Assembly: GCF_902728285.1 (NCBI RefSeq)
Contig: NW_027103286.1
Location: forward strand, 3,356,497-3,420,496
Length of the DNA: 64,000 bases
Reading direction: 5' to 3'
Origin: Clytia hemisphaerica
Taxonomy: Eukaryota
Shown here: piece by piece, positions 405 to 59,064 of the stretch
Position numbering within the stretch: the stretch's first letter is position 1
Layout: each line of letters starts with the position of its first letter
Program-made: the position numbers and the translations under genes
The notes under the pieces: model-generated
What the model was told of the DNA's origin: nothing
The model's database searches: none
Seen by the model: only the letters and a program-made list of their open reading frames with translations

Positions 405-790
405 GTGCTTTAATAGATAACCAGAAAATCATTTACCACTTGGAACTTATTCTTTAGGTAGTGCTGGAGGTGTTGAATTTGACCCATGTGTTTCAATTTT
501 AGTAACACTCATTGGTAAAATTCCGGTGTTTTCGGGTGTTTCCGAAAGGGAAAATGACTTTAATGCTTTTATAGATAACTAGAAAATTATTTACCACTGG
601 AAACTTATTCTGTGGTGACACTCACTTTCTGTAAGGTGTCAATCACGTCCTGTCGTGTACTCAATTTCTGTAGTGTCACTCACTTTCTGTAGTGTCACTC
701 ACTTTCTGTAGTGTCACTCACTTTCTGTAGTGTCACTCACTTTTGGCATTGCTGGAGGTGTTAAAAATGTGCCAGCTCTGTCACTATCTC
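405..790. mobile_element. Partial MITE; same family as the element at 56872-57290. Has subterminal 20-bp tandem repeats (gtgtcactcactttctgta, x5 at ~655-745) and the terminal sequence gtgccagctctgtca.
   Basis: Direct comparison with 56872-57290: shared internal sequence (cttattctttaggtagtgctggaggtgttgaatttgacccatgtg...ggtgtttccga.agggaa.atgactttaatgcttttatagataac.agaaaat) and the same 20-mer repeat. The left end appears truncated. Confidence 0.6.
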
Positions 791-1089
791 ACTACTTATA
801 CATCGTTGGAACGGAAATTTTATGCTGATTATGGAAACCCGGGTCTTAAAAAGTCCATCCTGGACAAAATTGCAAACGAGGCTGGAGTTCGCACTCCGTC
901 GTGGTGTTTTTTCGATTTTACCTGTTTTAGAAAATTGCTTACTGTCGGCAAAGTTAAAGGTTTTAGAATTTCATTTTTTATGCAAAATGCTGTCAATAGA
1001 ATGTGTTAATAGAAAAAAATTCAAAAATGTCGAAAAAAAATTTTTTTGCACTCCATCTTGGAGGATTTTGGCAAAAAATCGATGTTTTT

Positions 1090-2155
1090 TCTTAAAATTC
1101 GTCAAAAACTAGTCATTATGAAATTATGTAAGAATAAGTCCAAAAATACTTTCCTGCTAAAAATACTATAAAAGAATAAGAAAGTATAACAAAATAAGGA
1201 AAAATCGGCTCAAAACGCTATTTTGCACTCCATCGTTGGTGTTTTTAATGAAAAAACGTGATTTTTGGTGTTTTTAAAAAAAATATAACATTTTCTAGCT
1301 TTTCTAGCTTTTTCTTTGATCTACGACTGGAAATCCTTTCTTTCTCTTAGAATCATTTTTATCAAACACAAAATGCTAAAATATTCTGAAAAATGACCCT
1401 CCTTCGCTGGGGTTTGAAGTCAAACTCAGTATTTTGTAAGCCAAAATTCAGTATTTTTACTTAAAATTCGTCAAAAACTAGTCCATAAACCACTGAAATT
1501 GTGTCAAAGTAAGTCCAAAAATACTATAAAAGAATAAGAAATAATAACAAAATAAAGAACAATCGGCTCAAAACGCTATTTTGCACTCCCCCGTTGGTGT
1601 TTTTATTGAAAAAACGAGATTTTTCGTGTTTTTAAAAGAAGATATAGCATTTTCTGGCTTTCCCTTTGATCTACCACTGGAAATCCTATCTTTCTCTTAG
1701 AATCATTTTTATCCAACACAAAATGCTAAAATATTCCGAAAAATGACCCTCCGTCGCTGGGGTTTTAAGTCAAATTCGGTATTTTGTAAGCCAAAATTCA
1801 GTATTTTTACTTAAAATTCGTCAAAAACTAGTCTATAAACCACTGAAATTGTCTCAAAATAAGTCCAAAAATATTTCCCTGTTAAATGTTTATAAACGAA
1901 TGAAGTATAGGAAATATAAAAGATGGCTCCAAATGCTATTTTGCACTCCTCTGTTGGCGTTTTCTTTGAAAAACGGGATTTTTGGTGTTTTTGAAGAAAA
2001 TATAACATTATTTAGACTTATTTACGAAGCTGGAAATCCTATGTTTTCCGCTAGAATTTTTTTTCCAACACATATGCAAAAAAATATGAAAAATCACCCT
2101 CCTTCGCTAGGTGTTAGGCCAAAGTTTAGTATCTTTGCTTAAATTTCATTAAGAA
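1090..2155. repeat. Tandem array of ~365-bp subrepeats (3 units), left arm of the foldback element.
   Basis: The blocks 'ttaaaattcgtcaaaaactagtc.ataaaccactgaaattgt.tcaaa.taagtccaaaaatact...ggctcaaaacgctattttgcactcc' recur at ~1100, ~1470 and ~1830. Confidence 0.75.
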
Positions 2156-3559
2156 CTAGTTATTATCCATTGAAATCAAGCTTAAGTGAGCTTTTTAAAG
2201 TCACAGAGGTTCAAAATGTTCCAACTTGGACCGGCTGCCGGAAAATTTTGCCACTGAAACTGTCTCCTCCAACAATCATCGGGAATGGTCGTTCACTCCC
2301 TGCATCACTGACTGATGCTGATGAAGTCTACAATATCTTGATCAATGTGGGGAAGATCCTACGTAATCTAGGACAACAAGATCAACGTGTTACCGTTGAC
2401 CCCCCCCCCTACTACAAAAGTACAAAAGAGTACCCAAATGGAACAATGCGAATGCGAATTTCAGGGTTTTCGGTGACACGGTATCGGGCTTTTTCTGTTC
2501 GGTATTTCGGTATTTTGTAAAATATGTACGGTATTTATATTCAAAATGCTGCTAGTGATGGTAATATACCCATAAAACTTCAGCATTTCGGTATTTTACC
2601 TATGGAATCTAGGTATTATTTCCGTAACTCTTCCTGAACTATATTCTTCATGAAGAATTTTCCAAAAATTACCTGCGGCGCTAAACTATCTTCAAATTTA
2701 GAAATTTACTAAGTACACCCCTGTTTCAAATACGTTTGGCACTTGTATACTTATCCAACCGTCATAGTCCTTAAACAAGTGAAAGCTTTGTTGTTTTGCT
2801 AAGTTTTTGTACTAACTTTAACGAATGTGATGGCACAGGAAAAAATCTTCAAATCCCAGGCCTGGAACATGGCCATTTTCGGGGTGGGAAATGTCCGTTT
2901 TCGGGGTTGGGATTTGCCCTGGAAAAGTGAAACAACTACAGGCCTGGTAAATGACCATTTCCCAGGCCTGGGATTTCCAAATTTCGGGGTGTATAATGAT
3001 GATTTTCCAGGCCTCATTTCCCCAATGAACTTAACTGAGAACTAAGTCAAAGATATCCATAAAAAGTAGCGTTTGAGGTACTTAGTTTTCATAAAAATAT
3101 CAGTCCAAAACATGGTGTAAAAATCGAAATTTTCTCCTGTCCCTGAAAACCACGGTTGCGACTCCTCCGTCACGAAAACCTCAGTTCCTCGATACTAATT
3201 GTACGTCGAAATTAAGTCATTCTTTTACCATATGCTGTGATCGGAAAATGTAAACTAAAACTACTACTACTACGTTTGAGTTACGACATTACGTCATTCA
3301 GATCCCACATTCATTCGCTTTGAAAGTCTCAGCAGGTAGTTATTAATGCTCAAAACTTATTTCAACAATATTTGTGCAGCTTAAACGCCTTATTTCCTCC
3401 ATTAAGCGCCACCATACCACCCCCTTGTAAGCGCTGTAACTAAGGTTTAAGTTTCAAAATAAGCGCCGCACCTCCCAATGCGGCTGGAAAGTGAAGAATC
3501 TTCAATAGCAATTTCGTCCTAAAATGTAAAAACCCAGGCGAAGGAGAGCAATTTTTCAT

Positions 3560-4560
3560 ATTTTTTTGCATATGTGTTGGAAAAAAAATTCTAGGAGAAA
3601 ACACAGGATTTCCAGTCGTAAATCAAAGGAAAACCTAAATAATGTTATATTTTCTTTAAAAACACCAAAAATCTCGTTTTTCAATGAAAACGCCAACGGA
3701 GGAGTGCAAAATAGCGTTTTGAGCCCACTTTTCTATTTTCTATACTTCATTCTTTTAAAAACATTTAGCAGGGAAATATTTTTGGACTTACTTTGACACA
3801 ATTTCAGTGGTTTATAGACTAGTTTTTGACGAATTTTAATTAAAGATACTGAATTTTGGCTTACAAAATACCGAATTTGACTTAAAACCCCAGCGACGGA
3901 GGGTCATTTTTCGGAATATTTTAGCATTTTGTGTTGGATAAAAATGATTTTAAGAGAAAGATAGGATTTCCAGTCGTAGATCAAAGGAAAAGCTACAAAT
4001 TGTTATATCATTTTCTTCAAAAACACCAAAAATCTTGTTTATCTAAAAACACCAACGGAGGAGTGCAAAATAGCGTTTTGAGCCCACTTTTCTATTTCCT
4101 ATACTTCATTCTTCGAAAAACATTTAGCAGGGAAATATTTTTGGACTTACTTTGACACAATTTCAGTGGTTTATAGACTAGTTTTTGACGAATTTTAAGT
4201 AAAGATACTGAATTTTGGCTTAAAATTACTGAATTTTGACTTAAAACCCCAGTGAAGGAGGGTCATTTTTCAGAATATTTTAGCATTTTGTGTTGGATAA
4301 AAATGATTCTAAGAGAAAGATAGAATTTCCAGTCGTAGATCAAAGGAAAAGCTAGAAAATATTATATTTTTTTCAAAAACGCCAAAAATCACGTTTTTTC
4401 ATTAAAAACACCAATGGGGGAGTGCAAAATAGCGTTTTGAGCCGATTTTTCTTTAATTTGTTATATTTTCTTATTCTTTTATAGTATTTTTAGCAGGAAA
4501 GTATTTTTGGACTTATTTTGACATAATTTCAGTGGTTTATAGACTAGTCTTTGACGAATT
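3560..4560. repeat. Tandem array of the same ~365-bp subrepeats in inverted orientation (right arm of the foldback element).
   Basis: Reverse-complement copies of the left-arm unit at ~3600-3850, 3900-4200 and 4200-4560. Confidence 0.75.
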
Positions 4561-5035
4561 TTAAGAAAAAACATCGATTTTTCGCCAAAATCCTCCGAGA
4601 TGGAGTGCAAAAAAATTTTTTTTCGAGATTTTTGAATTTCTTTCTATTACCCTATTCTATTGACAGCATTTTGCACAAAAAATGAAATTCTAAAACCCTT
4701 TACTATGCTGAGAGTAAGCATTTTTCTAAAACAGGTAAACTCGAAAAAACACCCCGACGGAGTGCAAACTCCAGCCTCGTTTGCAATTTTGTCCAGGATA
4801 GACTTTTTAAGACCCGGGTTTCCATAATCAGCATAAAATTTCCGTTCCAACGATGTATAACAACCCCATTCACCTTCTGGGTTAAGCAAAATTGCTATTT
4901 TGTGATTCTGCTCCCAGACTATAAAGTAGTACAATGTGTACTTAGCTCGAGGCTAATCAATATCAACTATTAATTACAAATCTATCTAGAAGGTTGATAC
5001 TCAAGATCAACTATTATTTACAAAGTAATTTAAAT

Positions 5036-7453
5036 TCAATCAATGAAACCAACGCCATGGATAAAAGTGCGACAGTTTCGGCAAGGACAAGTAGTGGGCC
5101 TCCATTGCTTGATTTCTTTTTTAAATTCATCTAGGTTTTTAAGTTTTTTAAAGTCATCGGGAAGGGTAGCCCAGATTTTAGGTCCCAGGAAAGCTAAAGA
5201 CGATTTTCCATTCATTTCACTTTCAACTACTCTACTACGAAAGGAATTCATTTTTCTCGTTTTGATCTTACATTGGTTTTTGAGAAATATTTTACTTTCT
5301 GATTCATTGAGTTTTGATTTAAATAGCTCTGTGGATAAGGATTGAATTGCTCGTTGATGGAAGGTGGAACTGTTGTCAAGTTTCAACAGATCATCGAATG
5401 ATGAGTTGTAGTCTGAGTAAACGATTCTCAAGCATCTTTTATGTAGATTGTTTATTTTATCCTCTAGAGCTCTGCTATGAAACATCCATATGAGAGGACA
5501 GTAATTGAAGTGGCATTTAATGAAAGCATTCATCAAGCGTTTCTTTTTTTCTAAAGTGAGATATGTGCTCATTCTGGCTAAGGCGGTTATTTTCAAACTA
5601 GCTTTCTTGCAAAGATTTTCTATATGCGATTCAAACGTCAAAAGATTATCGAAGGTTACTCCAAGAATCTTTGACGTTTTGGTATTGAAAACAGTTTCTT
5701 CTCTAATATTTAGATAGAGCGAGTCGTCAATGATGTTAACTATTAGCTGACATTTGTCAGCATTACCAACCATTTGATTAATCGAAAGCCATGTGAAGAT
5801 TTTTTCTGCTCCAGAGCTTAGTTTACCACTTACTTCAATCCAGGTAGGAGCACCAACATAGGGTGTCGTATCGTCCGCATAATTCGCAACCTTAGTATCC
5901 TCAATGATGAAAAAGAGGTCACAGATATAAATATTGAAAAACAGAGGGCCAAGGATTGATCCCTGGGGAACACCATCCTTGATCTTGATCCAGTTACTCA
6001 GTTCGTTGCCTACTTTTGTCCTTTGTTGCCTATTTTCTAGATAACTCTTGACTAACCCAGTGGAAAGGTCATCGAACCCGTATGCACTGATCTTTGCTAC
6101 AAGTAATCTGTGGCACATGCAGTCAAAGGCCTTAGAAAGGTCGATGAGCAGTGCCCCAAAAACATCTTTTTTGTCATTGGCTAGCTTCCAGAGCTCTTCC
6201 ATTGGGAGAAGAGAGGTTTGAGTGGAATATCCTTTCCTGAAACCACATTGTTGTTCATCAAAGTAGTGCTCAAAGTATTCTGATATTTGATTGTGATATA
6301 CTCTTTCGTAAATTTTGGATATTACCGGCAGTATACTTATTGGTCTATAGTTACTTTTATCGTTTTTAGAATTTTTCTTGTAGACTGGGGTGACTGTCGC
6401 GAACTTGGAAATGTTGGGAAAAAAGCCTGAGCTGAAGGAGTCATTTATGCTTATAGAGAAGCAGCTTGCAAATAAGTGAGAGTATTTTTTAATTATTTTC
6501 GCTGGTATATCATTTTCCGCTTGAGACTTATTTGTCTTAAGGTTACTAATTATCTTCTCTACTTCGTCTTCGGTGGTGTTTCTAAACTTGAAGGAGTTTT
6601 CATTGTTTGATACCTTTTCTTTTATTTTGAGTATACTAGGGTGGTTTCTAAAAAGCATTATTTCATTTTGAAGAATATTATCAGAAAGTTCATTGAGAGG
6701 CACTGGTTCTGTTGGTGGTTGATTGAGATCTAATTTTTCAGTGATATTTATGAAGAATTCATTAGACATTTTTGCAATTTCTTTATCATCTTTAATCAGT
6801 TCATCATTTTCGACTAAGGTTATTTTCTCACTTATTGGTCCTTTATTAGAGAAAAAAGGGCGCACAGTTTTCCAAAATCTTTTATTGTCAGTGATTTGCT
6901 TTTCATCCAGAGATTCATAAAATCTTCTTTTAGTGTTTCTCAGAAGATATAAGCATCGGTTTCGCTGTTGGTTGTAATTATATTTGTTGATGTTAGAGGG
7001 GTCTTTTCGTTTAATGTTATTAAGTCGAGATCGATGCATCATGGCCTTTCGTAGTGATTTTGTCATGAAAGGTTTATCATTACCTCTTAGTATTTTAGTT
7101 TTTATCGGTGCTTCAGCGTTTAGAAGATTTACTACACTTTTCATTTTATGTTCAAAGTTGCGATTCGACTCTAGTACTTGTGTTAAATGATTTTTGAAAA
7201 GATCTTCGTTAAGATTTTTGTAGCATCTATATTTAATGGCTTTAGGTGGACACTTTTCAAAAGTGGTTTTTAAGACGCTTATTGTGATGTTGTGAAAGTC
7301 CGATAGGCTATTAGATACAGAGGAAGAGCCCTGAAAAATTCTTTGGTAATTTGTTAGCATCAGATCAATGCATTTCGGATTTTCTGCGTTTTTGAAGCAC
7401 GTAGGTTCATTTATCAAGCTAGAAAGCTCCCTGCTAGCAAGAAACTCAGGCAT
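5036..7453 (-). CDS. LINE ORF2 reverse-transcriptase domain ORF (805 aa).
   Basis: ORF track plus RT motifs (FxDD/YADD box, QG box). Confidence 0.85.
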   Translation of the reverse strand: MPEFLASRELSSLINEPTCFKNAENPKCIDLMLTNYQRIFQGSSSVSNSLSDFHNITISVLKTTFEKCPPKAIKYRCYKNLNEDLFKNHLTQVLESNRNFEHKMKSVVNLLNAEAPIKTKILRGNDKPFMTKSLRKAMMHRSRLNNIKRKDPSNINKYNYNQQRNRCLYLLRNTKRRFYESLDEKQITDNKRFWKTVRPFFSNKGPISEKITLVENDELIKDDKEIAKMSNEFFINITEKLDLNQPPTEPVPLNELSDNILQNEIMLFRNHPSILKIKEKVSNNENSFKFRNTTEDEVEKIISNLKTNKSQAENDIPAKIIKKYSHLFASCFSISINDSFSSGFFPNISKFATVTPVYKKNSKNDKSNYRPISILPVISKIYERVYHNQISEYFEHYFDEQQCGFRKGYSTQTSLLPMEELWKLANDKKDVFGALLIDLSKAFDCMCHRLLVAKISAYGFDDLSTGLVKSYLENRQQRTKVGNELSNWIKIKDGVPQGSILGPLFFNIYICDLFFIIEDTKVANYADDTTPYVGAPTWIEVSGKLSSGAEKIFTWLSINQMVGNADKCQLIVNIIDDSLYLNIREETVFNTKTSKILGVTFDNLLTFESHIENLCKKASLKITALARMSTYLTLEKKKRLMNAFIKCHFNYCPLIWMFHSRALEDKINNLHKRCLRIVYSDYNSSFDDLLKLDNSSTFHQRAIQSLSTELFKSKLNESESKIFLKNQCKIKTRKMNSFRSRVVESEMNGKSSLAFLGPKIWATLPDDFKKLKNLDEFKKEIKQWRPTTCPCRNCRTFIHGVGFID

Positions 7454-8107
7454 TTTATGTTTGTCGATTTCACAATTGAAATCTCCCAGTAGTAAAAGGC
7501 GGTCATGATCTCCTATAGAATCAAGGCTATTTTGTAAAAGCTCTAAATGTGAATTTATATTGTCTACATGTGGATTATAAGAGCAACCCAGTAGCCATTT
7601 TTGCTTCTTCAGATTGACCTCGATGAATATAGCTTCATAATTCTTGTCTTTTAATACGAGTTTAGAAGGAATGATTGCCGTTTGAAACTTTTCAGATCCC
7701 CCTTGAAAATCGAATTAGAGAGCATCAACTGTACTTCTTTATGGCTCAAAGGCTGTCTCGCTCACTGGAAGAAAATGTGTAAGGTGCAAACCTTGGTAGC
7801 TGAATTTCAGTGTCTTTGTTTTGATTGCGCGTTCGATCTTTGTAGCGATTTTGTAAAGATGATTGATGTTTTCATTCAGCATTGGAACGATACTTAAAAG
7901 CAGGTTCACGTGATCGCCACTTGTGATGAACTGAAAAAAAGTGAAAATTAAAGCGAGATAAATATTTAGTTGCATTACTTGAAAAACTTCCTTAGAGCAA
8001 TCTGATATGAGTCTCGGGCACTTAAAGATTCCTATCTGAAAAGTTTCAAACGGCAATCTTGTACCCAGAGCCACTTGAACCACGTTTTCAATTTTACTGA
8101 TGGACAT
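5036..8107 (-). mobile_element. Non-LTR retrotransposon (CR1/Jockey/L2-like LINE). Carries an APE-type endonuclease remnant at 7454-8107 and a reverse transcriptase at 5036-7453; frameshifts between EN and RT indicate decay.
   Basis: RT motifs in the 805-aa ORF: FRKGYSTQTSLL, LLIDLSKAFDCMCH, ANYADDTTPYV, VPQGSILGPLFFNIYI. Upstream, in another frame: HDRLLLLGDFNCEIDK (the EN 'GDFN' motif); ORF 7739..8107 lies in the EN N-terminal region. Confidence 0.85.
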
Positions 8108-9059
8108 GATACCATTTTTTTATTCGTGAGTGCTATCAGAATCATAAAGAAGTGAACTAAAGAGACTGGGTTCAAGTTTGTTCAAACGGCTACAAAATAT
8201 GATCAGTAGTCTAGCTGAAAAACTGTACAATTTCAAATAAAAAATTCATACGTAAGTTAAGGGTCCCATTTTTGCATTAATTTTGGTCGCTATAAAAGTC
8301 TAAGTGTACATTGGTTTGATGGGAAAAGGTAAAAAAATAAGGATCGTCCGTTCTTTTACGACAGATACTTGATGGTAGAATTTGAAAGTTCTGCAAAGAA
8401 TAATAAAACATAACAAGGTACAAACCTCCATCATAAATCTTCCTTCTTCTCTTCGTTCCGTGAACTCTTGCAATGCTTTCAAAATGGTAGCTTTCAAATG
8501 TGAGATGGTGGATATCTTTTGGAAGGGGATTCCCAAGACGAATAGTTGTACGGTGTACAATTTACCGTTCACTTTCAAACAATCCCTGATGACGAAAAAA
8601 GATACAGAAGGCTCAAATATGGAATTAATCTGAATCGCAGACCTCTATAGATATATACTTCCTATAAGAAACTCTTTTCGCTAGAGGATGAGCAGAATCT
8701 TATATGCCTAGGTTAAACTAAGGGCAATTCGATAACTGATATTTTACACCCTTATCTCACACACCTTGGTAGAAATTTTCCTGTATAGTAATAATAGGGA
8801 ATTACTATGTTTTTTTGCAAATAGTGATCACCAATTTCAACATGTCTTATTTCCACACGGGATCATTTCCAAACGCGTCTGTCAAAATACCTCATTGGCC
8901 CATATTCGTCGCTGGCGTAAAAAGGGCCAATGGATAGGAATTAAATAAGGGTCAAGCTAAAAATGGGAGAATCAAGCTTTGGCGTAATAAAGACCGGCGT
9001 AAAAGGAGCTGGCGTAAAAATGGCCGATAGCATGGACGCTTGTTTAAAAAGTCAACGTA

Positions 9060-9810
9060 ATTATGTAAATCCTAGTCTCCTTCGTTTTCACAACTGGACG
9101 AAATAAGGGATTTCCAATCTTTACTTTCTTGTAAATATGGAAATATGACTTTTCTATATTTCCAATTCTGAAATTGATTGAAACATCATATTTCCAAAAG
9201 TTGGAAATATTTTGAAAATATGATTTTTCAGATTTGGAAATATTAAGCAGTTTCATGTTATTATCCGACGCGCGTAAATAGCGACATTTGATTGGCTTCT
9301 TTGCTGTCCAATATTTTCGAATATATAGCTTCCATGGAGGCTACATATTTCAAAAATTGACGTCACACAACGAGTTCAATGACAATTGAGCATCTTCTTT
9401 TTGACGTTACGTCACAAAATAAAAATAAGACTTTTGAATAAAAAACTACCAAGAAACCAGATTTACGAGCATATAAATTGGAATTATGTTTGAAAACGAG
9501 AAATATTTTAGCGATGAACGGATAATAAACCATTTATTTGGACGCAGTCTCATCCAATATGAAAAATATTGGGCTACGAGAAAAGATATTGGACTCGGCG
9601 AAGCCTCGTCCAATATCTTTTCTCGCACGCCCAATATTTTTGCATATAGGATTCGACTTTGTCCAATAACTGCTTAATATGGTATTTCCACAACTTTGGA
9701 AATATAGAAAAGTCATATTTCCATATTTACAAAAGTATATGGAATTATCATATTTTCAAGATATTTCCAGGATTGGAAATCTCTTATTTCGTCCAGTGCA
9801 CTCTACCTGA
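9060..9810. mobile_element. Palindromic MITE/foldback element with nested inverted repeats (outer arms ~9085-9250 versus 9660-9800; inner palindrome 9530-9660).
   Basis: gacgaaataagggatttccaatctttactttcttgtaaatatggaaatatgacttttctatatttccaa (9095-) versus the reverse complement of 9700-9790. The same peptide NFGNIEKSYFHIYK appears in ORFs on both strands (9044..9256 minus, 9659..10009 plus). Inner palindrome: ccaatatgaaaaatattggg / gagaaaagatattggac. Confidence 0.65.
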
Positions 9811-10858
9811 TAGGATTTTCAAAATCTTCGTCAGTCACTTCGTGTTTGTAATCATAAATCTCCATTTCGAACGATTCCTTCGTATAATTGCCATAGTAAC
9901 CAACTACACGAACAGGTACTTGTTTCTCACGCAGGTTGCCAAGGGAACTGATCTCGGTTACATTCTTCTGTGTGAAATACCATTCGATCTCGTTAAACCC
10001 ATCCTATAAAAAGTCCGGATGAAAAACATAATGTAACCAAAGAAAGTTCACTCAGTAAGTGGCCTGGGAATCAAATAGGGTTGTCCAAGATCATGCAATT
10101 ATTATTGAGTACTATAAGGTCGAGAAGAGAGAGGATTGAGCGAGCAGTCAAATAAACGAGCGGCTATGCGTAATAACAAGAGAAAAATTAATCCAAATAA
10201 GATTTGACGACAGTGACTTAAAAAACTATAACACTTAATACTTGAAATTTGCTCAAGCTTTTCGGTTTTCTTTAGCTGGTCATTTTTAGTCTACACAATA
10301 GACAGATCCAGGCTTTTAGGCCTTACTCTTGGTCTATAGGCGGCCACTAGTGACCCCCACCGGGAATCGCTTATTAATAGGTTTGAACATAATAGACAAA
10401 ATTCACAAAAGATGTTTATCAATAGAGATTTTAAATAAAAGAATGTTTAAAACACAGCTGATTGGCTTAGGGTTCGAAACTCTCTATTGTTTCATTAAAA
10501 CCTCAGTGCGCATGCGATTTATCTGGAGAATTTCAATATTCAAAACAAGAGCAGTGCTCATAGCCCGAAGAGTAGCAGTTTTACGCTCGAAACGAAGGAA
10601 GATATGACGTAGCCTAGTCATTTTGGAATTTGCGAAGGTGAGAAGAAAACATCTTACCTCTCCCAATTGATCACTTCTGTAGATCCATACATCACACGGA
10701 ACGCCGCGCACGAAACGTTCGCCTTCATATTTGAACTTATCTTTAAATTCTTTGAGGTGAAGGAAAGCTTCCCTGGCGTGAACCCAATGATGTTTGTTTT
10801 TGAAGTACGGGAAGCGTGTGGTTGCAAGGTCTTCGATCGTTTTGTTACGACATTTCAT
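9803..10858 (-). CDS. Two-exon gene for a 133-aa hypothetical protein. Exons 10658-10858 and 9803-10003, each 201 nt, are joined in phase 0 across a 654-bp GT-AG intron.
   Basis: ATG at 10858. Donor GAG|gtaagatg at 10658. Acceptor tttttatag|GATGGG at 10003. Stop TAG at 9803-9805. Product: MKCRNKTIEDLATTRFPYFKNKHHWVHAREAFLHLKEFKDKFKYEGERFVRGVPCDVWIYRSDQLGE + DGFNEIEWYFTQKNVTEISSLGNLREKQVPVRVVGYYGNYTKESFEMEIYDYKHEVTDEDFENPIR. No homolog recognised. Confidence 0.5.
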
Positions 10859-10959
10859 GGGTGAGAAAGATTCATATAAAATACCTGTGGAAGTGAGTGG
10901 GAAAATATATAATTGTTATGTTGGGTAAAAGAAAGTTCATCTGACTAGTTAAGCCCATG

Positions 10960-11530
10960 CTGTATGTAAAAGTAAGTTTGTGACCGCAGTCGAGGGCGAC
11001 GGAAGGGCGTCACTCTATTCCCTGGATTTCTCCAATTATCCTTTTACCCCTCTTTTTACTTGCTGAGTATAAAGCAGAGAGGTATGAAGTAGCATTTTGA
11101 AATGTTTGGTATGACCCGGCTAGTATCCGAACCCACAACCTTGGGTACCGTAGCAGGATGCTCTAACTGCATGGCATGGAACAGCGGCACTCCCTGCTAA
11201 CAGGAATGAAATATGATTGTCAATAACCAGGAACCCTAAAACACCCCTGTCTCACTGCCCCGGTCGATCTTCTTTCCTCAGTGGGGGTAAAAATCCATAT
11301 TGAAATCCAAATGAAGATAGAAATTCTATTGTTCCAAGGTTAAAAAATCCAGTGGCGGGGATGGTTATGGAGTGAAATTTTAAACATTGAATTTCAAGTG
11401 GGGATGAAATCAAAGTCAATTTCCCAGTGCAGCTAAAGTTTCAGGATATTTTCCCGACGGGGACGAAATTTTTGACAAATTTCCCAGTGGGGATGGGGTC
11501 CCGGTGGGTCTTTGACACAGGGGTGAACTA
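10960..11530. repeat. SINE-like segment with a tRNA-related box (ggttgtgggttcggatac on the minus strand, ~11120-11140), followed by ~5 copies of a ~40-45-bp minisatellite (..aatttcccagtgggga.g..).
   Basis: B-box-like GGTTCGGAT and TAGAGCA on the minus strand. Tandem units at ~11280, 11340, 11390, 11440 and 11490. No clean tRNA cloverleaf could be folded. Confidence 0.35.
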
Positions 11531-41072: not shown

Positions 41073-44000
41073 TCAAATATGGACGCTATTTGTCAGCCAT
41101 TTTGGTTCCATGATTTGATAACCCAATTGATTTTTGGCTTTACGTTCAGCATTTCTTGTTTCTAGCTTCTTTTGGACGATGGTGTTCAAGCGATAAAAAG
41201 CTTTGCGCACAATTCGTCGGTATGTCGGGTTTGTGATATCTTTCCAGTATGAGAAAATCCTGTTCACTCGGAAATTGGCCAGCAAACCTCTGAACATCAT
41301 ATATTGCTGAAAAGGAATTTAATTTTCAAATTAATTATATAGATATGGTATTAACAAAACCCATGCGGCCAAGCGACCAAGCCCTGTAAACGGTCTAAGT
41401 TATAACCTAGGATTTGTAGATATAAAACACCCTATTGGTTTACTCAACTTTCAGCTGATAGTTTGAAAGTCTTCAAATGAAAACCACATAATGAGGCCCC
41501 CCCAGCGGTTGGCGTGATGGCGTGATGGAGGGTTTTTCGTGGCGTGATGGCGTGAAATTTTGAAAAAAAACGGCGTGATGGCGTGAAAATGAAGTGCCGG
41601 CGTGATCGTGAAATCGAGATTTTTTAGGCGTGATGGCGTGAAATTTTCAGTTCAGCGTGATCGTGAAATTATATTTATTAGTTGAATTGTATTTCTATGT
41701 CCATTTTAGCCAATTTAGAGGGTTTAAATTTCAAAATTTTCTTGGTCGGCCCTAACTATGGTGGGGCCTCCTATAGATTAGATTTCATTTTAAAACATAA
41801 AAGAAACGGTGCAAACAGTTCTATTCATCTGTCATTTATCCTTGTAACTTCTGATTGTTTTTAGCAGTTGCTAGCTAGTCTTCAAAATAAAGTCGAATGC
41901 TATGAGAGGGTCGAAAATTGAAATTTTTTCCCGTCAGCGAAAACCATGGTTGCGCTTTCTCCGTAACTAACATTTCCCTCTCTTTCTTAGATGCTTATTC
42001 TTAGATGCATCCAAGACATCAGGTCCTTTATTTCAGGAAAATATACATTTGTAGCAAAGCCATAAACAGAAAGAAGCAACAGGTTTATTATGAGGGTGTA
42101 ACTTAAGCAGATTGATCAAAAGAATCTGTGATGTTTAAACCATATTTTGGAAAAAAAGAGAGTAAATGAGGGCGATTTTAGCCATACTAAATTAAAAATT
42201 TCTCCTGTCGGTGCAAACCATGGTTGCGCCTCCTCGTTCCCCTTTTGAAAACTTTTCACGCTAATTCACAATTAATGTACTTTTAAAAGATTTCCATTAT
42301 TTTTACATGAGTTATTTTTCAAATTGAATTGAAATGGATCCCAAAATAGCACTTTGAACCCTTCAAAATTCAAAAATTTTCTCCGTTACCCAACCATGGT
42401 GGGCTTTGTCAATTTACTCAAACCGGTGCCCTTTGATGTGACCAGTTGTCCAACAATGTTTTATATGCATAAGTCAAGATTACGTCATTTTTCCTATCGG
42501 AAACACCCGAAAAAACTGGAATTTACCCCTGTGTATTACTAAAAATAGAAAAACAGATGTCAAATTTCTTCCAGATTTTTCGGGTGTTTCCGATAGGAAA
42601 AATGATATAATCTTGACTTGCTTACGCGTATGAGAATGCCGATGAAAAACTGATTAACGACCAAGCACATACCTATTTGTGTTTATATATAACAAAAATT
42701 ATGAGCATGAAAATAAATTTTCTAGGCGTAATGGCGTGAAATCGAAAGAAATTGGCGTGATCGTGAAAATCAAATTTTTCAGGCGTGATGGCGTGAAATC
42801 GAAAAAAAATTGGCGTGATGGCGTGAATTTTGGGTCCGCTGGGGGGGCCTCCATAATATACTCACAACATTGTAAAGTTTCCCAGTAAGAGCTTTCAATA
42901 AGGGCAGGTCTGTTCCATCTAGATTTTGATAAAGTCTAGTGGGTGAAGTTGGCATGAAATCTCTGTAATCAGGATAATTTGCTGAAGTGTGGAACAAGTT
43001 AATCCACAGAAAGCGTTTTAAGAACGTCCTCAACTGATCGCATGTTTCGAACTTTGCTGGAAAACCTTTCATCTAAATGAAATAACAATAGAGATATTGG
43101 CTGGGAAGAAGAAGAAGAAAATATAAGCGCGAAAACAAATTTCAGGTGTCGGAAGTGTATTCAAAGAGATACATGTAAGGAAGAAGGTCAAAAATTGAAA
43201 CTCTTCATTTTTAGCAAAACATTGTCTTGAGTTTCGAGTTTGGTAATACACTCTCAAAGCCAACGCAGACCTGTTACGCACTGGGAAAAAAACCCAAAAA
43301 TTAAACCCTGGTAAACAAATAATATCCAGTTGAAAAGCTTTAATTTGGAAAATGAGACATGGGTTTGGTGACATTTAAACACATTCCACACCTTTCCTCG
43401 CCCAGCATCAGGTTGAACCGTTCCTTCAGGCGACAACTCGTTAGCCCATGATTGTAATTCAGCGTCCCTGTGAATTCTTCCTCTTCTGTAATAAGTCTTG
43501 ATGATGTCATCGATGAAAGTCTCGTATTCTTTCATAATTTCTTTGACGTCATCACGGAAAGGGTAATATTTAATGTCCTCGTCATCCAAACCGTTACCCT
43601 GGAAACGCAAAATATTGGATTCTTTAAAACAAGATTCTAAGGGATAGTTTCAAAGTCGGTAAGAAATATTATGTACGCATTCTAGATCATATTATGAGTA
43701 AATTTACAATTTTGCATAAGCCATTTAGTTTAAAAAACTACCCCAGGTCAAATCTTAATAAAGGTAAAACGCCTTTACGCATTGTTCTTACCTCAATGAA
43801 ATCTTCATAAGTGTTGCTTTCATAATCTCGTTCTGCAAAAGCTTTTTGCGACAAATCAAGAAAACCTTGATTCCCGGTTCCGTAGATGACACTACCCGCA
43901 GCATTGGGTGTGGTCAAAGTCTCAAAGACTGTGGTGATATGAGGGACAGTCCCTTCACAATGGTGCTTAAAGAAATCATAGAGGGGGTGCTTGGTGCTCA

Positions 44001-48362: not shown

Positions 48363-49690
48363 CTAAATATAACTATCAATAACATTTTTCCATTCCACAC
48401 GATTCAAAGCTTTCCCATACCACTCACATTTCAATATACCAACTTTATTCAAACTTTTGTAAACTCCACGCCCATACGTGAATTCAGGGGCCCCGCGTGG
48501 GCGCCTTTCGCTAACCCAGCATGTCAGCATCTTACGGGGCAAACGATCAGAGGGCATTCGGGTTACGTGCCCTAACCAGCGTAGTTGGCGACGTGTAACA
48601 TATACATCAATAGAGAGCAAACCAGTGCGCTCAAGCAATTCAGCCGTCGAAATTCGGTGGGATCTCACATGATTTAAGTTAACACGGCATATGGTGCGGA
48701 CACAACGAGCATGAAAAACTCTCAACTTTCTATAAACAATTTCAGTAAGGCACCAGTGCTCAGAGCCATATAACAAAATCGCCAGAACAATGCCTTCGTA
48801 GACAGATTTTTTTGCTGCGAACGAAACATTAGTAGAACGGAATAAACAATTTCTCAAAGCTCCAAACGCACTGCTGGCTGCTTTTATTCTCGACTCGACG
48901 TCAAGGGTATCTTTACAATCACGCGATAGGATTGACCCCAGGTAACAAAAACGATCGACGATCGGCATATGGGATGCATCATCGATTTTGACATTACCAA
49001 GATTCGTATTATCGAAAGACAGGGGATCGGTATAGGTTTGGTTCGGAGCAGAAACAAACAAAATTTCAGATTTAGAGCTTTTCTCTTCGGTACCAACATG
49101 GATTTCTAGACCGAATCTTAGAAAATGCTTGACTAGTGGTGGAAGGTAGGTTTCGACAGAGCTTCTTGATGTGAATAGAACTCCGGTATCGTCAGCATAC
49201 TCAGAGTCCGGTAACGAAAACTGTTCACATTTTTTAGTTGAAGGTCGTCTACCGGTTAGGATATCGTCAAACTTGGTGTGAAAGATACAGACTTCTCGTG
49301 TGTGAGTGGTTCTCCAAGATATCATTACAGCAGCAAGGTAGAAAATGAAAAGGAGTGGACCCAGTATATCACCCTGTTTGACACCAATTATACTTTCGAT
49401 CCTTTTAGTGATGTCATTTACAACAAACTTAACTTCCACATTTGCGTGAAGTGATTTAAGCAGACGTACAAGTTTATCAGGGACACCAAAAATATATAAC
49501 ACTTCCCAGAGAAGCTCGCGCGGTACTCGATCAAAGGCTTTGACCAGGTCGAGAAATAATATCCAAGTCTCTTGGCCATGTTCCCTGCGCTTTTTCATTG
49601 CCATTTTTACTGTGAAGATCCCGTCAACACATCCACGCCCAGGACGAAAGCCGCACTGGGGTTCATGGTCAAGGATCTGCTACCACCTCA
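48363..49690 (-). mobile_element. 5'-truncated non-LTR retrotransposon fragment (RT domain, RTE/L2-like).
   Basis: 413-aa ORF 48363..49604 with FLDLVKAFDRVPRELL, GVKQGDILGPLLFIFYL, EYADDTGVLF. An upstream extension QILDHEPQCGFRPGRGCVDGIFTV (to ~49690) ends abruptly, as expected for 5' truncation. Confidence 0.85.
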
Positions 49691-53783: not shown

Positions 53784-55130
53784 TCAAGCGAGTCCAAGAT
53801 ATTTACTGAGACATTTCGGTAGATTGTCCTTCAAGAATTCGTCATGAAAACTTTTCAAGCAAGCCATTCGTGCCATATGTTTCAAGGACATGTTTAAATG
53901 ATCAAAAGGAGAATTCACTTTTACGAAGCGTAGATAAGGGCTTGATAAATACATCAAACTTGCTGTTGGGTCAAAAAGCGCTATTTCCGCCATATGCCAA
54001 TTAATTGAAAAACCGTAAATTTCTCTTCTACAATCGTACCGGATCATCAGTTCTCCTGATTTGAAGTCGTACAAACAAACCGAATGAAATGGTTGGGAGC
54101 CTGCTTCTGAAGTGACTTGAAGGCCTTCGACAAAAAATTGATCAAAACATCCAACGACTTTGTGTAAAATAATATCGTTTCGTCCATGACACAAATTAAT
54201 TCTTTTCAATGGGATGACCTCATTTTTATTGTCGACTTGAAAGACCTTTATGCTTTTTGCCTTCGTGTCAACGTTCTCCAAAAAAACATAGAAGATCGAG
54301 TTTGACAAATGATATAAATCATTAAAATTCTGAACACCTTCCCTTTCGGAGATTGTGACTTCATAATCCATAAGGCGATTTCCCTCAAAATCAAAACCAT
54401 ATACCATACCATATTCATAATTATGAAGGTAAATTCTCTTAGAATTCATATCTAGCGATACACCAGAATTATGGAACGCAAACGTTCTAGGTTCGAAATC
54501 CATTTCAGTGCAACTGCTCAACACAACACGTTGGAAATGTGAAAGTCTTTTTTCGCCTATTAAAACGATGTCAGCCACAAAATTGTAACCACCAGGAGAT
54601 ACAAGCACCATCAAGACGTAACCATATTCTTTGGTTTTTTCCTGCCAAACACTATGGATGTAATGAAAAGCTTTATATGGCTCCAGTTCAATGACACAAT
54701 CCTCCGTTTCTTGAAAAGTGGTCGATACAATACTTCCTGGATAAGCATATAAAAGGTGTTTCAAGCTTCCACTGTGTAATATCAAAGGCTGGCTCCCATC
54801 TTCCAAAGTCGAAGGCTTCTCAAACACAAACCAACGATTAAACAAAGGATCATACGGAAAGTCATATTCATTATAGCGCAAGTTCCATGATGGTAATTGA
54901 ATTAAACTCACTTGTAGTTTATCTGTTTCCTCATTGAATGAATAGACGCTTATGATATTGTCACCTGCTTTATCCTCAGCTCCGCAATATACGGTGTAAT
55001 ATTTCCCAGAGCTGTCGAAGCCACTCATACTTATTTGCTGGGGGCGGTCAAGACCAGCCCACATTTCTTTTGTCTCAACACATTCGGTGAGATGAGGTGG
55101 TAAGAACGATTGACGTGGGTAAGCCAACAT
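53784..55130 (-). CDS. Intronless gene (copy 2 of a tandem triplet) for a 448-aa protein with a C-terminal SOCS-box-like motif and an uncharacterised ~400-aa N-terminal domain.
   Basis: Uninterrupted ORF with ATG at 55130. C-terminus ...SPFDHLNMSLKHMARMACLKSFHDEFLKDNLPKCLSKYLGLA resembles the SOCS-box consensus (SLqHLCR..I........LPLP..L..YL). Confidence 0.6.
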   Translation of the reverse strand: MLAYPRQSFLPPHLTECVETKEMWAGLDRPQQISMSGFDSSGKYYTVYCGAEDKAGDNIISVYSFNEETDKLQVSLIQLPSWNLRYNEYDFPYDPLFNRWFVFEKPSTLEDGSQPLILHSGSLKHLLYAYPGSIVSTTFQETEDCVIELEPYKAFHYIHSVWQEKTKEYGYVLMVLVSPGGYNFVADIVLIGEKRLSHFQRVVLSSCTEMDFEPRTFAFHNSGVSLDMNSKRIYLHNYEYGMVYGFDFEGNRLMDYEVTISEREGVQNFNDLYHLSNSIFYVFLENVDTKAKSIKVFQVDNKNEVIPLKRINLCHGRNDIILHKVVGCFDQFFVEGLQVTSEAGSQPFHSVCLYDFKSGELMIRYDCRREIYGFSINWHMAEIALFDPTASLMYLSSPYLRFVKVNSPFDHLNMSLKHMARMACLKSFHDEFLKDNLPKCLSKYLGLA

Positions 55131-57717: not shown

Positions 57718-59064
57718 TCAAGCGAGTCCAAGATATTTAATGAGACATTTCGGTAGATTGTTCTTCAAGAATTCGTCATGAAAACTTTTCAAGCAAGCCA
57801 TTCGTGCCATATGTTTCAAGGACATCTTTAAATGATCAAAAGGAGAATTCACTTTTACGAAGCGAAGATAAGGGCTTGATAAATACATCAAACTTGCTGT
57901 TGGGTCAAAAAGCGCTATTTCCGCCATATGCCAATTAATTGAAAAACCGTAAATTTCTCTTCTACAATCGTACCGGATCATCAGTTCTCCTGATTTGAAG
58001 TCGTACAAACAAACCGAATGAAATGGTTGGGAGCCTGCTTCTGAAGTGACTTGAAGGCCTTCGACAAAAAATTGATCAAAACATCCAACGACTTTGTGTA
58101 AAATAATATCGTTTCGTCCATGACACAAATTAATTCTTTTCAATGGGATGACCTTATTTTTATTGTCGACTTGAAAGACCTTTATGCTTTTTGCCTTCGT
58201 GTCAACGTTCTCCAAGAAAATATAGAAGATTGAGTTTGACAAATGATATAAATCATAAAAATTCTGAACACCTTCCCTTTCAGAGATTGTGACTTGATAA
58301 TCCATAAGGCGATTTCCCTCATAATCAAAACCATATAACATACCAAAATCATAATTATGAAGGTAAATTCTCTTAGAATTCATATCTAGAGATACACCAG
58401 CATTACTGAACGCAAACGTTCCGAGTTCGAAATCCATTTCAGTGCAACTGCCCAACACAACACGTTGGAAATGTGAAAGTCTTTTTTCGCCTATTAAAAC
58501 GATGTCTGCCACAAAATTGTAACCACCAGTAGAAACAAGCACCATTAAGACGTAACCATATTCTTTGGTTTTTTCCTGCCAAACACATTGGATGTAATCA
58601 AAAGCTTTATATGATTCCAGTTCAATGACACAATCCTCCGTTTCTTGAAAAGTGGTAGATACAATACTTCCTGGAAGAGCACCTAAAAGGTGTTTCAAGC
58701 TTCCACTGTGTAATATCAAAGGCTGGCTCCCATCTTCCAAAGTCGAAGGCTTCTCAAACACAAACCAACGATTTAACAAAGGATCATACGGCAAGTCATA
58801 TTCATTATAGCGCAAGTCCCATGATGCTAATTGAATTAAACTCACTTGTAGTTTATCTGTTTCCTCATTGAATGAATAGACGCTTATGATATTGTCACCT
58901 GTTTTATCCTCAGCTCCGCAATATACGGTGTAATATTTCCCAGAGCTGTCGAAGCCACGCATACTTATTTGCTGGGGGCGGTCAAGACCAGCCCACATTT
59001 CTTTTGTCTCAACACAATCGGTGAGATGAGGTGGTAAGAACGATTGACGTGGGTAAGCCAACAT
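57718..59064 (-). CDS. Intronless gene (copy 3) for a 448-aa SOCS-box-like protein, ~93% identical to copy 2.
   Basis: ORF with ATG at 59064. C-terminus ...FDHLKMSLKHMARMACLKSFHDEFLKNNLPKCLIKYLGLA. Confidence 0.6.
   Translation of the reverse strand: MLAYPRQSFLPPHLTDCVETKEMWAGLDRPQQISMRGFDSSGKYYTVYCGAEDKTGDNIISVYSFNEETDKLQVSLIQLASWDLRYNEYDLPYDPLLNRWFVFEKPSTLEDGSQPLILHSGSLKHLLGALPGSIVSTTFQETEDCVIELESYKAFDYIQCVWQEKTKEYGYVLMVLVSTGGYNFVADIVLIGEKRLSHFQRVVLGSCTEMDFELGTFAFSNAGVSLDMNSKRIYLHNYDFGMLYGFDYEGNRLMDYQVTISEREGVQNFYDLYHLSNSIFYIFLENVDTKAKSIKVFQVDNKNKVIPLKRINLCHGRNDIILHKVVGCFDQFFVEGLQVTSEAGSQPFHSVCLYDFKSGELMIRYDCRREIYGFSINWHMAEIALFDPTASLMYLSSPYLRFVKVNSPFDHLKMSLKHMARMACLKSFHDEFLKNNLPKCLIKYLGLA

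Follow-up and report, generated by a model that had tools for sequence, protein, structure and literature searches.

An internally deleted, probably AcademX-type DNA transposon with the shape of a foldback element in Clytia hemisphaerica

The window analyzed here (the whole stretch of 64,000 nucleotides from Clytia hemisphaerica) carries a pair of long inverted arms around a central segment (Table 1). The first-pass annotation had described a 4-kb foldback-like structure at 795–4870, with ~365-bp tandem subrepeats, three per arm and mirrored, and both the structure and its subrepeats were recovered by arm alignment and tandem-repeat detection. The right end needed correction, the family terminus being at 4921, ~60 bp farther out, so that 61 nt of the right arm had been left outside. 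The inverted repeat (796–2107 vs. 3538–4860) could be followed in one gapped alignment of 1340 columns with 90.1% identity, and each arm consists of a terminal domain of ~290 bp and three tandem subunits (333–369 bp each, once anchored). Tandem Repeats Finder gave a period of 350 at 1159–2009 and of 359 at 3527–4569, and the left array extends ~55 bp more inward, to about 2192. In a single-strand DNA fold of the region, 1207 of the 1375 bases of the left arm paired with the right arm (MFE −1384 kcal/mol). The subunits are position-specific orthologues, both between the arms and between copies found outside the window, and no further copy of the arms was detected elsewhere within the 64 kb. Scanning the window with Rfam and for tRNA genes gave no hits. 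The pseudo-ORF that had been noticed on opposite strands of the arms is present on both, without signs of coding constraint: nonsynonymous changes exceed synonymous ones in all pairs, and two outside copies have in-frame stops. The 131-aa arm stretch used as a protein query had no indexed relatives.

Table 1. Features of the element and its immediate flanks, in window coordinates.
Feature	Position	Strand	Remarks
Left flank hexamer ACTACT	791–796	.	Exact complement of AGTAGT at 4925–4930, with both hexamers in register about TAA, the presumed target site; read from sequence
Left arm terminal domain	797–1085	+	Family terminus incomplete, its outermost ~62 nt being absent
Left arm start block TATACATCGTTGGAACGGAAATTTTATGCTGATTA	start of 797–1085	+	Invariant across all copies
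Left subunit 1 (369 bp)	1086–1454	+	92% to right subunit 1; 89–90% to subunit 1 of L001/L002
Left subunit 2 (350 bp)	1455–1804	+	89% identical with right subunit 2, but 92% with left subunit 1, which indicates local homogenisation
Left subunit 3 (333 bp), divergent, innermost	1805–2137	+	87% to right subunit 3; 74–79% to other subunits
Partial fourth subunit, arm-derived	2138–2184	+	Abuts the transposase fragment; same junction in L004
Academ (AcademX-type) DDE transposase remnant, assigned by homology	2185–2400	+	Exhaustive search, tblastn and published-domain matches
Poly-C and filler, then block 2431–2454	2401–2456	+	Block colinear with L004/L009 (96%)
Remaining centre	2457–3526	.	CGGTATTT-type short repeats; local palindrome 2843–2984
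Right subunit 3	3527–3845	-
Right subunit 2 (359 bp)	3846–4204	-
Right subunit 1 (365 bp)	4205–4569	-	93% to L001 subunit 1
Right arm terminal domain	4570–4859	-	Mirrors 797–1085 (94% over 319 nt)
Outermost terminal module, right arm only	4860–4921	-	Ends in the family terminus 5'-TAGTCTGGGAGC (4910–4921); shared with L001–L003
TAA, candidate 3-bp target site duplication (TSD)	4922–4924	.	Left copy missing wholly or in part, together with the module
Five GCACTCC boxes, left arm	891, 1048, 1225, 1583, 1943 (span 891–1949)	+	Candidate transposase-binding sites
Five mirrored GCACTCC boxes, right arm	3701, 4060, 4419, 4602, 4759 (span 3701–4765)	-

The centre, described earlier as a unique middle segment, is not without features, as it contains a transposase fragment at 2185–2400. 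An exhaustive search with 2143–2517 recovered 42 relatives at E ≤ 1e-3 (32–83% identity), some of them inside proteins of 300–700 aa. The ~72 codons left correspond approximately to residues 569–640 of a 703-aa relative (P0005) and include a “VPxWTG...IGNxRSLPA...VTVD” block, in which the second catalytic Asp presumably lies, and at the nucleotide level they are 84% identical to a coding copy (L005). Pfam, NCBIfam and PDB sequence searches left the protein family unclassified; for the element as well as for its ORFs and relatives, Pfam detected neither a MULE or other transposase domain nor THAP or Tnp_P_element matches. The AlphaFold model of another relative (P0044) was poor (pLDDT 61) and a Foldseek search with it uninformative. 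The family was recognized by local blastp against the published alignment of Academ transposase domains (Kojima, 2020, PMC7165386, Data S3), in which the window fragment matched the Academ-1_Ami domain with E = 5e-11 and its relatives reached values from 3e-39 to 4e-17 (P0040 3e-39, P0044 4e-31, P0005 4e-28). Non-helicase (AcademX-type) domains scored 72–132 bits, against ≤27 bits for AcademH. By these sequence matches the remnant is classified as an Academ-superfamily transposase of AcademX type, not AcademH. As to whether the centre (2155–3545) is element-specific, a check proposed in the first-pass annotation, 2185–2400 and 2431–2454 recur in a marine-metagenome contig (L004), compared with which the window copy is short of a further ~110 bp of coding sequence at 2401–2456. 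The following ~1.07 kb (2457–3526) have no detectable relative and no demonstrated relation to the element; the idea of a centre composed of decayed subunits was rejected, and the similarity of L009 to the centre past 2456 fell within the null, not above chance.

Outside copies were found in Tara Oceans and marine-biofilm metagenomes, and arm sequence was present on independent contigs from four other datasets. Exact-pattern scans with two conserved words found neither of them in JGI metagenomes, GTDB genomes or IMG/VR, collections with little eukaryotic DNA. The right arm was 90% identical to the outside copy L001, equal to the arm-to-arm identity. L004 is colinear with window 1665–2400 across the arm/centre junction, and L005 differs upstream of the exact point at which L004 and the window share their junction. 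Another contig (L006, 6.9 kb) encodes the transposase family, with only ~45–55% identity to the window family, and its C-terminal catalytic block (orf443) matched the published Academ domains with E = 2e-21. It has inverted ends (4–73 vs. 6714–6783, 96%; 224–518 vs. 6626–6907, 72.5%) and an internal repeat with a 362-bp period (3–73 vs. 365–436, 86%), and the contig stops inside its arms. That Academ coding sequence goes with arms built from subrepeats is suggested by one coding contig (L006) together with the L004 junction. Another relative, L011, is a complete element of 6331 bp whose coding region matches all three ORFs of L006 colinearly. Its terminal inverted repeats (TIRs) are ~165 bp long and without subrepeats, so that the foldback shape is not shared by the whole clade. 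In both L006 and L011 a conserved C-terminal ORF, Cys-rich in its tail, follows the colinear transposase ORFs, and no helicase ORF was seen. The only PDB matches of this C-terminal ORF were to human EXO1 (XPG family), at the H3TH motif and with E = 0.12, and Pfam gave no significant match, so that its identity as an XPG nuclease is weakly supported.

The arms carry a short motif, GCACTCC, with 10 of its 14 window occurrences inside them. The relaxed form GCWCTCCYYC appears once per subunit, in mirrored orientation between the arms, and its counts are 7 for the window (0.42 expected) and 4 for L006 (0.01 expected), an enrichment that is partly circular, as the motif was defined after inspection of both elements. 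All arm-bearing loci carry it, and the coding-only L005, L007 and L008 do not. By analogy we consider it a candidate transposase-binding site.

The first-pass annotation had proposed to define termini and TSDs from other copies in the genome. The right terminus could indeed be placed at 4921, where the homology of L001–L003 ends, three independent loci that carry the 62-nt module and diverge directly outside TAG; a perfect TSD was seen in the relative L011. Within the window the terminal word TAGWCYRGGAGC has a single occurrence (4910–4921), and it is also found at both ends of L011. The termini of the window family, 5'-TAGTCTGGGAGC...(GCTCCCAGACTA-3'), are nearly identical at the terminal word to those of L011, 5'-TAGACCAGGAGC...GCTCCTGGTCTA-3', and both have the 5' pyrimidine and 3' purine that are a trait of AcademX. 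The family ends in TAG...CTA. In the window the right end is followed by TAA (4922–4924) and the left terminus is gone, while L011 has a perfect ATA/ATA duplication at the homologous position, i.e., a 3-bp TSD in a complete relative. A TSD of 4 bp (TATA) fails in L011, and no direct repeat of 8–10 bp was present at either candidate boundary pair. The left arm appears to have lost its outermost ~62 nt. The possibility that the missing module lies elsewhere in the window was rejected, and so was an origin of the outer 60-nt module by duplication and divergence of the inner terminus (the alignment score equalled the shuffle mean).

Several other explanations have to be weighed. Inverted duplications are a known long-read artefact, and a palindromic chimeric read or a collapsed repeat could in principle give such a structure. 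The probability of this is practically nil, since the arms have diverged, differing at 10% of positions plus indels; besides, 1.4 kb of unique sequence lie between them and arm sequence appears on the independent contigs already mentioned. The name Foldback (FB)-type used in the first-pass annotation implies FB/Mutator, a membership that was not supported. The locus has the structural hallmark of FB, long TIRs built from subrepeats around a middle segment, and most foldback elements are considered Mutator members (Dias et al., 2014), in which case the Academ fragment would be a passenger or a nested insertion. However, no MULE or other Pfam transposase domain was detected in the element and its relatives, there is no 8–10-bp TSD, and the TAG...CTA termini correspond to those of a complete Academ element whose TSD is 3 bp long. 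Moreover, the arm/Academ junction is common to another copy (L004), and Academ coding sequence with repeat-built inverted arms is found again in the independent L006, whose protein is so distant. An FB/Mutator origin is thus largely refuted, and we regard it as extremely unlikely.

It is also very unlikely that the arms are independent insertions or arrays of a dispersed satellite-bearing repeat that came by chance to lie head-to-head around unrelated DNA including an old Academ fragment. The identity between arms (90%) is not above that of the right arm with L001, the terminal module is on the right arm and missing on the left, and ~1.07 kb of the centre lack a demonstrated link to the element, points that speak for separate insertions. 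Against this, there is no other arm fragment in 64 kb, the arms contain the same three differentiated subunits in register and end within ~50 bp of the same point, in L004 the arm meets this transposase fragment at exactly that base, and the arms of L006 are inverted around its coding region. The shared junction, the position-specific subunits and the inverted arms of L006 uphold the earlier claim of one mobile element instead of two satellite insertions. The boundaries leave more room for doubt. The copy might be intact and asymmetric, with one end at the inner block (TATA followed by CATCGTTGG, from 801) and the other at the outer one, or with both ends inner (801–4855), a 4-bp TATA TSD and a left arm that never had the 62-nt module. 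TATA is found before CATCG at 797–800 and after both candidate right ends (4856–4859 and 4920–4923), 4-bp TSDs are possible in AcademX, and the inner block, where conservation between copies is highest, is similar to the published termini of AcademH-6/8_CVi (CATCGTCGGAACCC). We still consider an asymmetric copy unlikely: the 62-nt module is found in three independent loci with divergence immediately outside TAG, the same terminal dodecamer ends a complete relative with a clean 3-bp TSD in which the 4-bp reading fails, and with the TAG...CTA terminus the ACTACT/AGTAGT flanks fall in exact register around TAA.

We conclude, with good confidence, that 797–4921 is a single, internally deleted, non-autonomous cut-and-paste DNA transposon of AcademX type and foldback shape. 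The architecture, the family of the coding remnant, the shared junction, and the termini and TSD of the relatives are direct observations, from which the following history can be proposed. The autonomous ancestor would have encoded a transposase of >1500 aa, an XPG-like nuclease and a Cys-rich finger (compare L006 and L011), most of this coding sequence having been lost. The TIRs of the element have grown to ~1.4 kb, each with a terminal domain of ~350 bp (the 62-nt end module plus ~290 bp) followed by three subunits of ~360 bp, and such long subunit-built TIRs produce the foldback shape. [quoted passage not shown] Autonomous copies from the genome of the window itself were not seen. The transposase of autonomous relatives would mobilise the copies in trans, cutting at TAG...CTA and inserting with a 3-bp duplication, and the GCACTCC/GCWCTCCYYC boxes, one per subunit, might be multiple binding sites that give specificity to end recognition. 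The window copy is old, as its arms are 10% diverged, and it is probably immobile because its left end is without ~62 nt.

Foldback transposons are hotspots of rearrangement, and their classification is difficult since most copies no longer have the transposase. Here, a 72-codon remnant, a shared deletion junction and termini conserved in complete relatives tie the foldback shape to the little-studied Academ. This supports the published idea that the shape is convergent, arising by TIR elongation in unrelated superfamilies, and extends the range of Academ TIRs from ≤575 bp, non-repetitive, to ~1.4 kb built from subrepeats. For annotation, such arms should not be classed as satellite DNA or “FB/MuDR” from shape alone, and a testable candidate transposase-binding site is provided. 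More tentatively, and with the odds rather against it, an AcademX lineage may have evolved foldback elements independently, conserving the ~360-bp period and the GC(A/T)CTCCYYC box from the window family to L006. If so, there would have been selection on a phased transposase-binding array, not neutral growth of a satellite, perhaps for a higher-order synaptic complex or two-nucleosome phasing. Academ would then be the third superfamily with foldback elements, after Mutator and P, and the binding-site array could be tested directly.

The Academ superfamily goes back to Kapitonov & Jurka (2010). [quoted passage not shown] In agreement with this, the remnant and its relatives are homologous to X-type transposase domains, the relatives encode transposase, nuclease-like domain and Cys-rich tail, all on one strand, and the complete relative has a 3-bp TSD and 5'-T...A-3' termini; the occurrence in marine animals or samples is shared as well. 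The difference lies in the TIRs. Those reported for Academ reach 526–575 bp, with internal tandem repeats not mentioned (PMC7165386), unlike the ~1.4 kb made of three ~360-bp subunits found here, in a copy that is a deletion derivative with ~72 codons. Among the publications consulted, no Academ element with such an architecture was found. KolobokP composite elements were rejected as a parallel, their long terminal repeats being direct, not inverted. The satellite-carrying non-autonomous Helentrons of bivalves are likewise dispersed in marine invertebrates and have short internal tandem arrays (PMC7492417), but they lack long inverted arms and depend on a rolling-circle (HUH) enzyme, in contrast to the mirrored arrays and DDE transposase described here. 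Helitrons and Helentrons are recognized by the lack of TIRs, by 5'-TC and 3' hairpin plus CTRR ends and, in autonomous members, by Rep/helicase, and the arrays described here lie in 1.4-kb TIRs.

In FB and Tetris of Drosophila and Tm1 of nematodes, a middle segment likewise lies between long TIRs that contain tandem subrepeats (~220-bp repeats in Tetris; PMC4079207, PMC3169594), their copies are largely non-autonomous, and they are potential seeds of satellite arrays and rearrangements. These elements are assigned to Mutator, with TSDs of 8–10 bp, whereas here the remnant, the termini and the TSD of the relative are of Academ type. Galileo, a P-superfamily element of Drosophila, is also a non-Mutator DDE transposon with a foldback-like shape and very long, internally repetitive TIRs. 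It differs in its P/THAP transposase and 7-bp TSD; THAP, a P-type transposase and a 7–8-bp TSD were not found here, the TSD of the relative being 3 bp. THAP sites in the tandem repeats of its long TIRs bind the transposase biochemically (Marzo et al., 2013, PMC3688188; PMC3573991), a binding that for our element we infer. The likeness extends to the position of the first binding site, ~70 bp from the end in Galileo, compared with 62–64 nt from the end for the invariant block (801–835) here, and to the defective state of the majority of Galileo copies.

The first-pass annotation had described inverted arms built of tandem subunits, three per arm, and this architecture is real. Positions 796–2107 and 3538–4860 form one long gapped inverted repeat (90.1% identity over 1340 aligned columns), and each arm contains tandem repeats with a period of 350–359 bp. 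The subunit borders, set by anchoring on the best-conserved 23-mer, are listed in the table; a non-repeated terminal domain of ~290 bp completes each arm outside these units. Folded as single-stranded DNA, the two arms are predicted to pair over 1207 of the 1375 bases of the left arm (MFE −1384 kcal/mol). No sequence similar to the arms was found elsewhere within the 64-kb window, and the element contains no ORF longer than 116 aa.

Public metagenome assemblies annotate the terminal "pseudo-ORF" as a protein, and in this way we found three contigs carrying outside copies of the arm, L001 from Tara Oceans and L002 and L003, which appear to be one locus from two other marine datasets. They were 86–90% identical to the window arms, in register. 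Nonsynonymous changes exceeded synonymous ones in every pair compared and there were in-frame stops in L001 and L002, indicating a pseudo-ORF free of coding constraint. Subunit 3 of each arm was closest to subunit 3 of the opposite arm (87%, vs. 74–79% to any other subunit), while subunit 1 of both arms and of L001 and L002 formed a group at 89–93%. These identities, subunit by subunit, indicate that the arm architecture was inherited. Left subunits 1 and 2 (92% identity) show what we read as local homogenisation. The flank at 1–150 of L002 resembles a coding exon with a GT splice donor at its end, and therefore this copy is probably located in an intron.

The centre carries what we identify as the remnant of an Academ transposase. 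When the stop-free stretch 2143–2517 was used as query in an exhaustive HMMER search, 42 relatives were found at E ≤ 1e-3 (32% to 83% identity), some of them within proteins of 300–703 aa. They share the conserved blocks DNGDY...SSQHVTN, VPxWTGF...IGNCRSxPAxPTD, VTVDExxY and RLGGFHRxKNF. Neither Pfam, NCBIfam, PDB nor a low-confidence AlphaFold model provided a classification for them. Academ transposase domains were taken from Data S3 of Kojima (2020; PMC7165386) and compared locally. They matched three of the protein relatives (P0040, 3e-39; P0044, 4e-31; P0005, 4e-28), orf443 of the related coding contig L006 (2e-21) and the window fragment itself (5e-11). Non-helicase (X-type) Academ sequences scored 72–132 bits, vs. 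≤27 bits for AcademH. The window holds a single such remnant, at about 2185–2400.

Arms and centre belong together, as indicated by contig L004 (856 bp), which spans the junction: it is colinear with window 1665–2400, with subunit sequence on one side and the transposase fragment on the other. In a three-way alignment, arm-derived sequence was common to the window and L004 right up to AAGCTTTTTAAAG, upstream of which L005, a coding copy 84% identical to the remnant at the nucleotide level, carries coding sequence, and from this we infer that the window copy and L004 descend from one internal-deletion derivative. A further stretch of ~110 bp retained in L004 has been lost from the window copy, with colinearity resuming at 2431–2454. 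Beyond 2456 (about 1.07 kb) the apparent similarity of the centre to L009, another L004-type fragment, was not above chance. Three features lie in this part of the centre: short repeats of the CGGTATTT type (2470–2620), a local palindrome (2843–2984) and, at 3121–3231, a weak match to a distant part of the window (42189–42308; 67% over 120 nt).

Three ORFs follow one another in the 6.9-kb contig L006: a long transposase-like one, one with a ...TDMALEQ... block, and one that combines an XPG-like motif with a Cys-rich tail. Such an arrangement is reminiscent of the Academ superfamily; a three-domain protein of this layout has been described for the AcademX lineage, together with 3–4-bp TSDs and 5′-pyrimidine/3′-purine termini (Kojima, 2020; PMC7165386). 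L006 has inverted ends (4–73 vs. 6714–6783 at 96%; 224–518 vs. 6626–6907 at 72.5%) and an internal repeat with a period of 362 bp (3–73 vs. 365–436 at 86%), of which about 1.4 periods are visible because the contig stops inside both arms. A complete element was found at 7835–14165 (6331 bp) of L011, which comes from a 212-kb contig, with a perfect 3-bp TSD (ATA/ATA), termini 5′-TAGACCAGGAGC...GCTCCTGGTCTA-3′ and TIRs of ~165 bp that have no subrepeats. All three L006 ORFs have colinear counterparts in its coding region (8e-108, 6e-89, 1e-103). For the C-terminal ORF, 43% identical between both and with a Cys-rich tail, human EXO1 was the only protein matched in the PDB. EXO1 is a nuclease of the XPG family, and the similarity covers the H3TH motif; at E = 0.12 it is not significant, although it points the right way for an XPG-type nuclease. 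In L011 the complete copy is preceded, at a distance of about 1 kb, by a separate 1.2-kb element of nested inverted repeats (5680–6860).

The outside copies also define the right terminus. Beyond the inverted repeat, 62 nt are common to L001–L003 and the right arm only, and past that point the flanks are unrelated. The window has a single instance of the word TAGWCYRGGAGC (4910–4921); L001–L003 have one each, where homology stops, and L011 has two, one at either end of the complete element. From these occurrences we place the right end at 4921, followed by TAA, and not at 4870 as first annotated. In the window family this outer end reads 5′-TAGTCTGGGAGC (window and L001) or TAGTCCAGGAGC (L002), almost identical to the L011 dodecamer. 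The start of the left arm, at TATACATCG, is abrupt and would fit a deletion at TA microhomology that removed 65 nt, namely TAA and the 62-nt module. The flanks ACTACT (791–796) and AGTAGT (4925–4930) are perfect complements of each other and stand exactly in register on either side of the presumed TAA target, a complementarity that the L011 flanks lack.

A less favoured reading would have the element end at CATCG, with a 4-bp TATA duplication. The block CATCGTTGGAACGGAAATTTTATGCTGATTA located there (801–835 and 4821–4855), 64 nt from the end at 4921, does not vary among any of the copies and is similar to the termini CATCGTCGGAACCC published for the oyster families AcademH-6_CVi and AcademH-8_CVi, which are of a different Academ lineage. 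However, the TATA reading fails in L011, and we prefer the end at 4921.

The arms also carry candidate binding sites. GCACTCC was found 14 times in the window, 10 of them in the arms, five per arm in mirrored orientation. The relaxed form GCWCTCCYYC had 7 occurrences in the window, against an expectation of 0.42, and 4 in L006, against 0.01; the four in L006 are mirrored and lie within or adjoining the arms. This form recurs at subunit spacing in every arm-bearing locus and is absent from coding-only contigs. Since both elements had been inspected before the pattern was defined, it is a lead and not proof.

Around the element the window is eukaryotic, as judged from LINE-type reverse-transcriptase ORFs and an exon of THO complex subunit 1 (THOC1), the only recognisable host gene seen; there were no Rfam or tRNA matches across it.

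Features located in the window (strand where given)
Feature	Position	Strand	Evidence and remarks
19-bp minisatellite (TTCTGTAGTGTCACTCACT, about 7 copies)	608–743		Directly left of the element; within a locally duplicated segment of ~160 bp (411–495 vs. 569–783)
Left arm subunits	1086–1454, 1455–1804, 1805–2137		23-mer anchoring
Right arm subunits	4205–4569, 3846–4204, 3527–3845		23-mer anchoring
LINE-type reverse-transcriptase ORF	5036–7453	−	RVT_1, 1e-29; begins only ~110 bp right of the element's end
1141-aa ORF	19797–23222	+	No Pfam match; unusual composition (GC 0.44, AT skew +0.33)
LINE-type reverse-transcriptase ORF	48363–49604	−	RVT_1, 5e-15
Two 448-aa ORFs	53784–55130, 57718–59064	−, −	No Pfam match; equal length, 3.9 kb apart; look like a tandem duplicate
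THOC1, long exon	61464–62297	−	efThoc1, 1e-50

In the searchable literature the combination of "Academ" and "foldback" was not found, and the papers that bring together Academ, tandem repeats and TIRs do not, judged mainly by their titles and abstracts, describe elements of this kind. The longest Academ TIRs in Kojima (2020; PMC7165386) are of 526–575 bp, and tandem or subterminal repeats are not mentioned there. The initial interpretation as a Foldback (FB)-type transposon is partly supported: the element is a transposon of foldback shape that falls outside the FB/Mutator group. This shape is already thought to arise independently across superfamilies, most cases being placed in Mutator, with Galileo (P superfamily) as an exception (Dias et al., 2014).
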